Assembly (NCBI RefSeq): GCF_017348835.2
Contig: NZ_CP071375.1
From: Escherichia coli
GTDB taxonomy: Bacteria; Pseudomonadota; Gammaproteobacteria; Enterobacterales; Enterobacteriaceae
DNA length: 64,000 bases
Strand: one strand, 5' to 3'
Made by a program: the position numbers and the translations under genes. This document shows, piece by piece, positions 38,825 to 40,509 of this stretch. The first letter of the stretch is position 1, and each line of letters begins with the position of its first letter. The notes below the pieces were generated by a model, which was given only the letters and a program-made list of their open reading frames with translations, was not told the origin of the DNA and did no database searches.

Positions 38825-39142
38825 TTACAAATCGAAACTCATATTTAATAAAGGTGCGTGTTGCTGTGCACCATAGACATCATTGTCACCTACATTCCCG
38901 GAGATAATATCTCGTGGCATGACGATTTTTACTGCGTTAGAAGGATCAAACCAGACAATACGATGAATAAAGTCAGGTCCAACATGATATAAGCGCGCAA
39001 TCAGTTCTGGGGTTAATTGCCCTGATGATTTAACTCGCTCATAGTTTTCTTTGGTTTTAAATAAAATATCTAAAACCAGTTCGTAAGGTCCGGCATTTTT
39101 CGAACGAATGACTTGCGCCAGTGAGACAATTGACTGTTTCAT
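38825..39142 (-). CDS. Small conserved protein of unknown function (DUF4387-like by recollection)
   Basis: 105-aa ORF MKQSIVSLAQVIRSKNAGPYELVLDILFKTKENYERVKSSGQLTPELIARLYHV...DVYGAQQHAPLL; start overlaps the stop of the upstream 456-aa gene (translational coupling). Confidence 0.6.
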   Translation of the reverse strand: MKQSIVSLAQVIRSKNAGPYELVLDILFKTKENYERVKSSGQLTPELIARLYHVGPDFIHRIVWFDPSNAVKIVMPRDIISGNVGDNDVYGAQQHAPLLNMSFDL

Positions 39143-40509
39143 GCCTGAACTCCTTCTGGCGTCACCTGTTCAATATGGAAATCAAAACGCAGAGCGTCGT
39201 TGGCTTCAATCAGGTGATATATGGAAAATTCGTATACCGGCCCGCCCTGGATATCAGAAGGGGAGAACGGGAACGCCAGATTGCCTGCGGTAGCGATGCG
39301 GTTTTCATAGCCGTAGTGCAGCATGGTAGAGCGCACCAGCGAGCAAACGCTATTGGCAATTTCCTGGGTCGGTGCAACTACATCAAGAACAATTCCCAGC
39401 TCATGCCCGGCAGTTTGCATCGGTTCATGGTCTCCCATCACCCCGTTTTTGCCGTACAGGTGGAAATTGATGCGAATGCTGTCATCGTCTAACGACAGGT
39501 TACGCGAAACGCTGGTTTTGACTTCATCGATGATTTTATCGATCCCGGCGATCATGATCGGGTCGCGCGTTCCGGCGATGGTCAGACAGCGGAAGCCCAC
39601 CCGTCGTGCACCTTCCAGTTTCAGGGCATACGGCGTTTCTTCATGCTTAGAACCGCTGACGTACACTTCGCCGTCATTGACCGCTTTAAATGTGCAGCCT
39701 TTCAGGTTCAACACGCCGCCAGGTCCTGGCAGGAAGTAGGGATCGGATTTCTCATACAGTGTGTGTGCAGCTGCTGACGTTTCGGTAAATTTACGCTTCG
39801 GATTAAATGTCTTCAGCGTAAAGCCGTTGTCATCAATGATGCCCATCGCACAGTCAGAGCCTGAGCCGGGCGTTGCAGCGATTGCCGCGCATTCAAGGAT
39901 TTTCCCACAATGCAGCGCCAGACCTTCATCAAAGCCTTGCATGATCGGGAGCGCTGCAAAGCAGGCCGGGTCGTAAGCGCGCCCGCCCAGCACCACTTGC
40001 GCGCCTTCTTTCAGCGCCCGCTGGAAGGGTTCGATGACCATTTGCGCAACGATATACGTACTTTCGTCAATCGCGTCGTGGGTTAACGGCGGGACAAAAT
40101 CCAGCGCCGTGATTTTGCCGTTATCCAGTGCCTGGTGGACGATGGCTTTGTCAACGTCTGCCGGGATCAACGCCATCGAGAACGAGAGGTGCTCTTCCTG
40201 GGCAATCTCATGAATTATTTCTCGGCACCACTCCAGGTGTGGTGCGGCACCAGAACCGCCGGCCGTTCCGATCACCACCGGTATATTATTTTGCACGCCT
40301 GCGGTGATCATATAGCGCAGATCGCGCTTGACTCCTGCGCGATCGGTAAATGGTTTGCCTGCCCCGAGGTAGTGGGGGCCTGGATCGGAAGAGCCTGCAT
40401 CAACGGCGATCAGATCGGGCGATTCTGCCATCGCTTTGCGGAAGCTCTCTTCCGGGAATCCATACCCGAGGATTGCCGTTGGCGATAAGACTTTAAAAGA
40501 ACGAGCCAT
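39139..40509 (-). CDS. AtuA-like / DUF1446-family protein of unknown function (assignment by recollection)
   Basis: 456-aa ORF MARSFKVLSPTAILGYGFPEESFRKAMAESPDLIAVDAGSSDPGPHYLGAGKPF...; no motif I can tie to a defined enzyme; co-transcribed with the methylaspartate pathway genes. Confidence 0.55.
   Translation of the reverse strand: MARSFKVLSPTAILGYGFPEESFRKAMAESPDLIAVDAGSSDPGPHYLGAGKPFTDRAGVKRDLRYMITAGVQNNIPVVIGTAGGSGAAPHLEWCREIIHEIAQEEHLSFSMALIPADVDKAIVHQALDNGKITALDFVPPLTHDAIDESTYIVAQMVIEPFQRALKEGAQVVLGGRAYDPACFAALPIMQGFDEGLALHCGKILECAAIAATPGSGSDCAMGIIDDNGFTLKTFNPKRKFTETSAAAHTLYEKSDPYFLPGPGGVLNLKGCTFKAVNDGEVYVSGSKHEETPYALKLEGARRVGFRCLTIAGTRDPIMIAGIDKIIDEVKTSVSRNLSLDDDSIRINFHLYGKNGVMGDHEPMQTAGHELGIVLDVVAPTQEIANSVCSLVRSTMLHYGYENRIATAGNLAFPFSPSDIQGGPVYEFSIYHLIEANDALRFDFHIEQVTPEGVQA

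Follow-up and report, generated by a model that had tools for sequence, protein, structure and literature searches.

The Escherichia coli DNA analyzed here (64,000 nucleotides of contig NZ_CP071375.1 from NCBI RefSeq assembly GCF_017348835.2, hereafter "the window") carries a genomic island of methylaspartate-pathway genes on the minus strand between sucD and cydA (chromosomal order kdp … gltA-sdhCDAB-sucABCD – island – cydAB-tol-pal). Two of its genes, cmlA and cmlB, are the subject of this study, and lie between a methylaspartase gene and a transporter gene, as a preliminary description of the locus had pointed out:

39139-40509, minus strand: cmlA, putative citramalate lyase large subunit, 456 amino acids (aa), ATG start (Pfam AtuA, PF07287/DUF1446, E = 1e-16)
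38825-39142, minus strand: cmlB, putative citramalate lyase small subunit, 105 aa, ATG start (Pfam DUF4387, PF14330, E = 8e-39)
39139-39142, minus strand: overlap of the cmlA stop and the cmlB start, ATGA, pointing to translational coupling (direct sequence reading)
40036-40038, minus strand: cmlA codon 158, GTC (Val), i.e., G158V; Gly in all relatives compared
40513-41754, minus strand: mal, methylaspartate ammonia-lyase, directly upstream of cmlA (TIGR01502, E = 1e-163; RefSeq)
37384-38664/38685, minus strand: symporter of the DAACS family, dicarboxylate/amino-acid:cation type (DctA/GltP NCBIfam matches under cut-offs; RefSeq)

Both genes are annotated as coding sequences in RefSeq, and the two open reading frames (ORFs) with their shared 4-bp ATGA are present as first described. 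The overlap is kept in the orthologues of Escherichia sp., Klebsiella, Citrobacter, Pseudescherichia and Morganella, and the non-synonymous/synonymous rate ratio (dN/dS) is low when the genes are compared with those of Escherichia sp., Klebsiella, Citrobacter and Pseudescherichia (0.025-0.05 for cmlA, 0.05-0.12 for cmlB). On these comparative grounds, both are real genes under strong purifying selection and not chance ORFs. Within E. coli, the cmlAB stretch is 100% identical in strains PE164 and F2_81. The families that the preliminary description had named for the two proteins, AtuA/DUF1446 and DUF4387, were correct, as the Pfam matches to PF07287 and PF14330 show; the AtuA match of the 456-aa protein has a low score (61 bits), and NCBIfam holds a model for neither CmlA nor CmlB.

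A function for the pair came from a search of the PDB, in which CmlA matched chain A of entries 9ERQ/9EVF (456 aa, "Citramalate lyase, subunit A (cmlA)", E = 6e-292, 92.3% identity, 35 substitutions) and CmlB matched chain B (105 aa, "Citramalate lyase, subunit B (cmlB)", E = 1e-56, 84.6% identity, 16 substitutions). The two-gene architecture, both lengths and both Pfam families are the same in the solved and the window pair, and the fold predicted for the latter superposes on the crystal structure with a template modelling (TM) score of 0.96; the CmlA substitutions include G158V, a change private to two E. coli strains. The two entries, released in October 2025, are entitled "Citramalate lyase - ADP - pyruvate complex" and "Citramalate lyase - AMPPNP - citramalate complex". 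Their sequences share 96-97% identity with genes of Citrobacter, Lelliottia and Klebsiella located in a glmSLE-mal-cmlAB-transporter-fumD-cobO operon, and we infer that the crystallized protein is that of Raoultella. In a recent application, Raoultella planticola cmlAB (a gift of I. Berg) was expressed in E. coli for the conversion of citramalate to pyruvate and acetate: an acetyl-CoA (coenzyme A) auxotroph grew on mesaconate only with the cmlAB plasmid, and labelling confirmed that the carbon reached acetyl-CoA (bioRxiv 10.64898/2026.01.16.699985).

The function of CmlAB is thus already known, having been public through the PDB since October 2025 and used in a 2026 preprint, so that the statement in the preliminary description that neither protein has an assigned function was out of date. 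Despite the PDB entries, neither protein has a functional name in RefSeq, Pfam or NCBIfam; annotation databases lag behind the function. In the NCBI records P0002, P0059 and P0072, CmlA homologues are still called "3-methylaspartate ammonia-lyase", an error already criticised in 2015 (PMC4682846).

The order of the island on the minus strand is glmS-glmL-glmE-mal-cmlA-cmlB-DAACS symporter-fumD-cobO, the symporter having been named GltP by Kronen and Berg (2015; Figure 5 legend, PMC4682846). Besides the features listed above, it comprises:

44606-45055 (RefSeq start; the ORF is extendable to 45118), minus strand: glmS, B12-binding mutase subunit S (NF002612, E = 8e-76)
43218-44606, minus strand: glmL, mutase accessory/reactivating protein (TIGR01319 and NF040745)
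41754-43199, minus strand: glmE, glutamate (methylaspartate) mutase subunit E (TIGR01503, E = 6e-261)
35624-37276, minus strand: fumD, class I fumarase/mesaconase, mesaconate to (S)-citramalate (NF011921, 1271 bits)
35012-35614, minus strand: cobO, cob(I)alamin adenosyltransferase, final gene of the operon (RefSeq)

With this gene set, GlmSE and GlmL would convert glutamate to methylaspartate, Mal would convert methylaspartate to mesaconate, and FumD would convert mesaconate to (S)-citramalate, supplying the substrate that CmlAB would cleave to pyruvate and a C2 unit. The FumD step has been characterised biochemically in E. coli O157:H7, about 90% of whose strains carry the pathway, with (S)-citramalate as the product (Kronen and Berg, 2015; PMC4682846). 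The same study found citramalate uncleaved under the conditions used for citrate lyase, isocitrate lyase and methylisocitrate lyase, and E. coli citrate lyase inactive on it; the authors left the fate of citramalate open and pointed to the DUF1446 gene downstream of mal, which they noted is often mis-annotated as methylaspartase (PMC4682846). In line with the preliminary description, which had seen no citramalate lyase in the island, tblastn (E ≤ 1e-3) returned no homologue of CitC, CitD, CitE, CitF, CitX or CitG anywhere in the 64-kb window, and the strain's own citCDEFXG lies ~97 kb away. The proposal of the preliminary description that the pair may supply the missing step is supported by the solved orthologue, which is named citramalate lyase and was crystallized with citramalate and pyruvate.

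We took a census of 80 methylaspartase loci from different GTDB species, the 80 closest to E. coli Mal among at least 591, and scored them in tblastn searches whose queries were the E. coli island proteins, CitC-G of the strain and one further ORF. CmlA and CmlB were found directly downstream of mal in 45 of the 80 loci, always on the same strand and starting 5-293 nt after mal, with cmlAB interrupted by contig ends in two more. CitE together with CitF occurred in 14 loci, all of them from Firmicutes and mostly accompanied by CitD, CitC, CitX and CitG, and no locus among the 80 held both CmlAB and CitE plus CitF (Fisher p = 5e-7); the cross-genome neighbourhood check proposed in the preliminary description thus places cmlAB with mal and never with classical citEF. 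The remaining loci had a CitE-like gene alone (7/80) or neither lyase type (12/80, several of these on truncated contigs).

The gene order glmS-glmL-glmE-mal-cmlA-cmlB is kept in Riflebacteria, Aminicenantes, Spirochaetes, Planctomycetes, Verrucomicrobia and others, and in Riflebacteria, Lentisphaerae and metagenomic lineages the corresponding order with AtuA and DUF4387 genes was seen at 61-66% identity. Within E. coli, cmlAB and mal-glmE occur in equal numbers of genomes (1,121 of 5,426 at ≥80% coverage, or ~21% of complete genomes).

Taken together, the orthology to a named and solved protein, the place of the pair in the operon and a census in which no locus combines it with CitEF lead us to conclude, with a probability of roughly 0.8, that CmlA and CmlB are the large and small subunits of a citramalate lyase that binds adenine nucleotide, is independent of both CoA and acyl carrier protein (ACP), and catalyses the last step of the methylaspartate pathway. 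CmlAB stands in for the classical citramalate lyase of clostridia, a three-subunit enzyme of the CitDEF type (EC 4.1.3.22; the CitD/E/F complex of Clostridium tetanomorphum, activated by CitC/X/G), which has the same net reaction and place in the pathway and fills the equivalent slot in the glm-mal clusters of Firmicutes. The two enzymes have no relationship in sequence or fold, and CmlAB, in contrast to the classical complex, lacks an acyl-carrier subunit, phosphoribosyl-dephospho-CoA and CitC/X/G, and binds an adenine nucleotide. Neither CmlA nor CmlB gave an NCBIfam match to CitE (beta), CitF (alpha) or CitD (ACP), and membership in the classical citramalate/citrate lyase complex was rejected.

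Several points weigh against this assignment. The function of the E. coli pair is carried over from its orthologue, and the functional label of that orthologue depends on the names given by the PDB depositors and on one preprint that used the enzyme; no primary biochemical paper on CmlAB was found in the literature searched. The census covers the 80 loci with the highest similarity to E. coli Mal (of at least 591), from species that are phylogenetically non-independent. Finally, CmlA of the window has Val at residue 158, where the other sequences of our alignment A1 all have Gly (75/75).

For the role of the nucleotide, the reading that we favour, at somewhat less than even odds, is that ATP is a co-substrate and that the reaction passes through an acyl phosphate. 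The C4 carboxylate of citramalate would first be phosphorylated by ATP, the acyl phosphate taking the carbanion-stabilising role that the thioester plays in the classical enzyme; retro-Claisen cleavage would then yield pyruvate and acetyl phosphate, and acetate kinase would return the ATP, for net products of pyruvate and acetate. Basic residues of CmlB (the invariant RSKNAGP/K72/R77 patch) would probably be contributed to a shared active or nucleotide site. We prefer this route because the expulsion of a free acetate carbanion is chemically difficult, and because the crystal complexes resemble a substrate-analogue pair (AMPPNP and citramalate) and a product pair (ADP and pyruvate).

A rival reading of the same enzyme in the same pathway role, itself tentative, is that the nucleotide is not consumed: (S)-citramalate would undergo direct retro-aldol cleavage to pyruvate and free acetate, with metal or acid-base assistance as in isocitrate lyase, and ATP/ADP would act allosterically or structurally. 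Counting against the ATP part of our proposal, the words ATP, acetyl phosphate, ackA and pta are absent from the text of the preprint, which has citramalate split directly into pyruvate and acetate (bioRxiv 10.64898/2026.01.16.699985), and since ATP is never mentioned there, the nucleotide could be an effector or a structural ligand. However, capturing AMPPNP with the substrate and ADP with the product is the usual trapping design for an ATP-using reaction. In addition, although the N-domain of CmlA has a fold with no close relative in the PDB, its best structural neighbours, all weak, are ATP-dependent carboxylate kinases and other enzymes of the amino-acid-kinase fold (aspartokinase, N-acetylglutamate kinase, glutamate 5-kinase, carbamate kinase, isopentenyl phosphate kinase), which use ATP to make acyl or carbamoyl phosphates.

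The mechanism inferred for CmlAB has a conceptual analogue in ATP-citrate lyase and in the citryl- and malyl-CoA lyases, to none of which homology was detected. In a reaction of the ATP-citrate lyase type, the carboxylate is activated first and ATP-assisted cleavage of a citrate-like hydroxy-acid follows; by names and ligands, CmlAB differs in involving no CoA, and its ATP hydrolysis is putative. We tentatively entertain the broader notion, though we think it somewhat more likely to fail than to hold, that CmlAB, together with all other members of the AtuA/DUF4387 family (2,364 clusters in total at 50% identity, E ≤ 1e-3), represents a new class of ATP-dependent C-C lyase. The AtuA of Thauera belongs to the same Pfam family. 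In the reaction proposed for it, a tertiary beta-hydroxy carboxylate loses acetate and a ketone remains; in formal terms this chemistry matches that of CmlAB, which suggests a family-wide reaction type. The Thauera protein is a distant relative only, with a length of 615 aa like the single-chain fused homologues, a CoA ester as substrate and a location in a terpene operon. AtuA and DUF4387 are joined in a single chain in 17 of 18 long homologues, and their adjacency as separate genes persists at 33-44% identity; the neighbourhoods of these more distant homologues, on short contigs, held nothing else that was informative. One long homologue (P0274, 1096 aa) carries a family III CoA-transferase on the same chain as AtuA and DUF4387, a natural fusion that hints that some family members may act on, or couple to, CoA esters.

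The copy in this strain could be crippled or cryptic, with G158V weakening or inactivating CmlA, the island unexpressed under known conditions, and little contribution to metabolism, a possibility that we consider unlikely. In the homologue alignment, the invariant residues of CmlA are D42, G44, G87, G176, R177, D180 and G353, and near-invariant positions include the motifs DAGSxDxGP, GSAGG, AQMGxEP, GGRxxD, HxGKxxEC and AAHTLYE; those of CmlB are K15, N16, G18, K72, R77, G82 and D88, with the motif RSKNAGP. Residue 158 falls within the conserved AQMG[IV]EP strand-to-helix loop, and its codon is GTC here vs. GGC or GGT in other E. coli, Escherichia sp. and K. oxytoca. An exact 61-mer with the Val codon was found in 2 of 903 matching E. 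coli genomes, both of them pig isolates. The V158 allele may accordingly be reduced in function, as judged from conservation. Kronen and Berg obtained neither induction of the island nor growth on glutamate (PMC4682846). To our knowledge, E. coli is incapable of de novo B12 synthesis. A damaged cmlA occurs elsewhere too, in Yersinia aldovae ATCC 35236 (L024 11247-12616), where residues 1-233 and 230-456 match in two different frames, which indicates either a frameshifted pseudogene or a sequencing error. However, both ORFs of the window are full length, all other conserved residues are intact (every one in CmlB, and all in CmlA save Gly158), purifying selection across the entire lineage is strong, and CmlA may be able to accommodate one Gly-to-Val replacement.

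Far less probable is that the pair is not a pathway enzyme at all and serves as an accessory factor for glutamate mutase or methylaspartase (chaperone, reactivase or second ammonia-lyase), as the preliminary description had suggested for the mutase. The pair is always beside mal in the clusters examined, and several database records call homologues "3-methylaspartate ammonia-lyase" (see also PMC4682846). Yet the reactivase role already belongs to GlmL, the crystal ligands are citramalate and pyruvate, Pfam and NCBIfam give AtuA and DUF4387 only and no methylaspartase family, the glm-mal clusters of Firmicutes are wholly without the pair and have CitDEF instead, and a lone pair without glm or mal occurs in Accumulibacter; the suggestion finds no support. 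An identity as methylaspartate ammonia-lyase was likewise rejected, the 456-aa protein having no MAAL_N or MAAL_C domain (PF05034, PF07476) and no TIGR01502 match, and the true methylaspartase being the neighbouring gene. Least probable of all is a genuine AtuA of acyclic terpene (citronellol/geraniol) catabolism acting on 3-hydroxy-3-isohexenylglutaryl-CoA, which has the Pfam and RefSeq label "acyclic terpene utilisation AtuA family" in its favour and against it the low Pfam score, the glutamate-fermentation context, the absence of atuB-H and liu genes from both island and window, and the split 456-aa form vs. the ~600-aa long form to which the Thauera protein belongs, on which grounds AtuA sensu stricto was rejected.

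Other observations concern the citramalate-lyase slot in the loci compared. Loci with a CitE-like gene and neither CitF nor CmlAB include L030, L031, L054, L059, L064 and L068 (Marinobacter, Tabrizicola, Glaciecola, Pirellulales, Arenicella and others); here the step probably falls to a citramalyl/malyl-CoA lyase in a CoA-dependent route of aerobes, as in the methylaspartate cycle, and this position of the pathway would then be filled in a third way. The lone pair of Accumulibacter sp. (L008 10001-11679, 68% identity) has malQ, rpoBC and an RND efflux operon as its neighbours and neither glm nor mal genes close by, suggesting either that the enzyme also serves outside the methylaspartate pathway or that the partner genes are elsewhere in that genome. 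A conserved ORF of ~315 aa with a Walker A (GxxGxGKST) and a Walker B-like motif (L002 11712-12665, L003 11698-12654, L005 11677-12618; also L029, L036-L066 and L070-L092) follows cmlB in non-enterobacterial clusters and lies between citC and citX in the CitDEF-type clusters of Firmicutes. It is missing from the E. coli window and received no Pfam, NCBIfam, PADLOC, PHROGs or PDB assignment; by its placement, this predicted P-loop protein is linked to the citramalate-lyase part of the pathway with either lyase type.

Within the window, three further features may bear on the expression of the island:

38709-38742, minus strand: perfect 15-bp hairpin in the cmlB-transporter spacer (RNA folding vs. 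shuffles)
34982-35008: strong terminator-like hairpin after cobO (promoter/terminator scan)
34073-34978, plus strand: LysR-type regulator in convergent orientation, putative island regulator (RefSeq annotation)

The spacer measures 139/160 nt, and its hairpin (GGUAGAUGCCUGAAU-CUCU-AUUCAGGCAUCUACU) lies in a region (38686-38830) that folds at -37.8 kcal/mol (z = -4.2 vs. shuffles). With its U-poor tail, the hairpin may either terminate part of the transcripts or act on mRNA stability, and would in this way divide the operon into two expression units. The promoter/terminator scan, whose output did not exceed the shuffle expectation, was used solely for the terminator downstream of cobO; the LysR gene is the LTTR of Figure 5 in PMC4682846. 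Between glmS and cydA, the minus strand has two ORFs (45614-46036, 140 aa, and 46118-47062, 314 aa) in a stretch of 36-44% GC, both hypothetical in RefSeq and without an assignment from Pfam, NCBIfam, PADLOC, PHROGs or the PDB, and this low-GC stretch at the island's edge appears to be of foreign origin.

The identification of CmlAB as citramalate lyase closes a gap that dates from 2015, when the enterobacterial methylaspartate pathway was left without a recognisable citramalate lyase and citrate lyase proved to be no substitute, and it means that two unrelated enzyme systems occupy the same pathway slot in different phyla. Should the lyase be ATP-dependent, the step would be ATP-neutral by way of acetate kinase and would need no ACP or prosthetic-group machinery. 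The enzyme has already been applied in synthetic C1/C5 metabolism. For the families themselves, the assignment provides a function for DUF4387 and for one branch of the AtuA family, and would correct thousands of records that now read "AtuA family", "DUF4387" or, wrongly, "methylaspartate ammonia-lyase".

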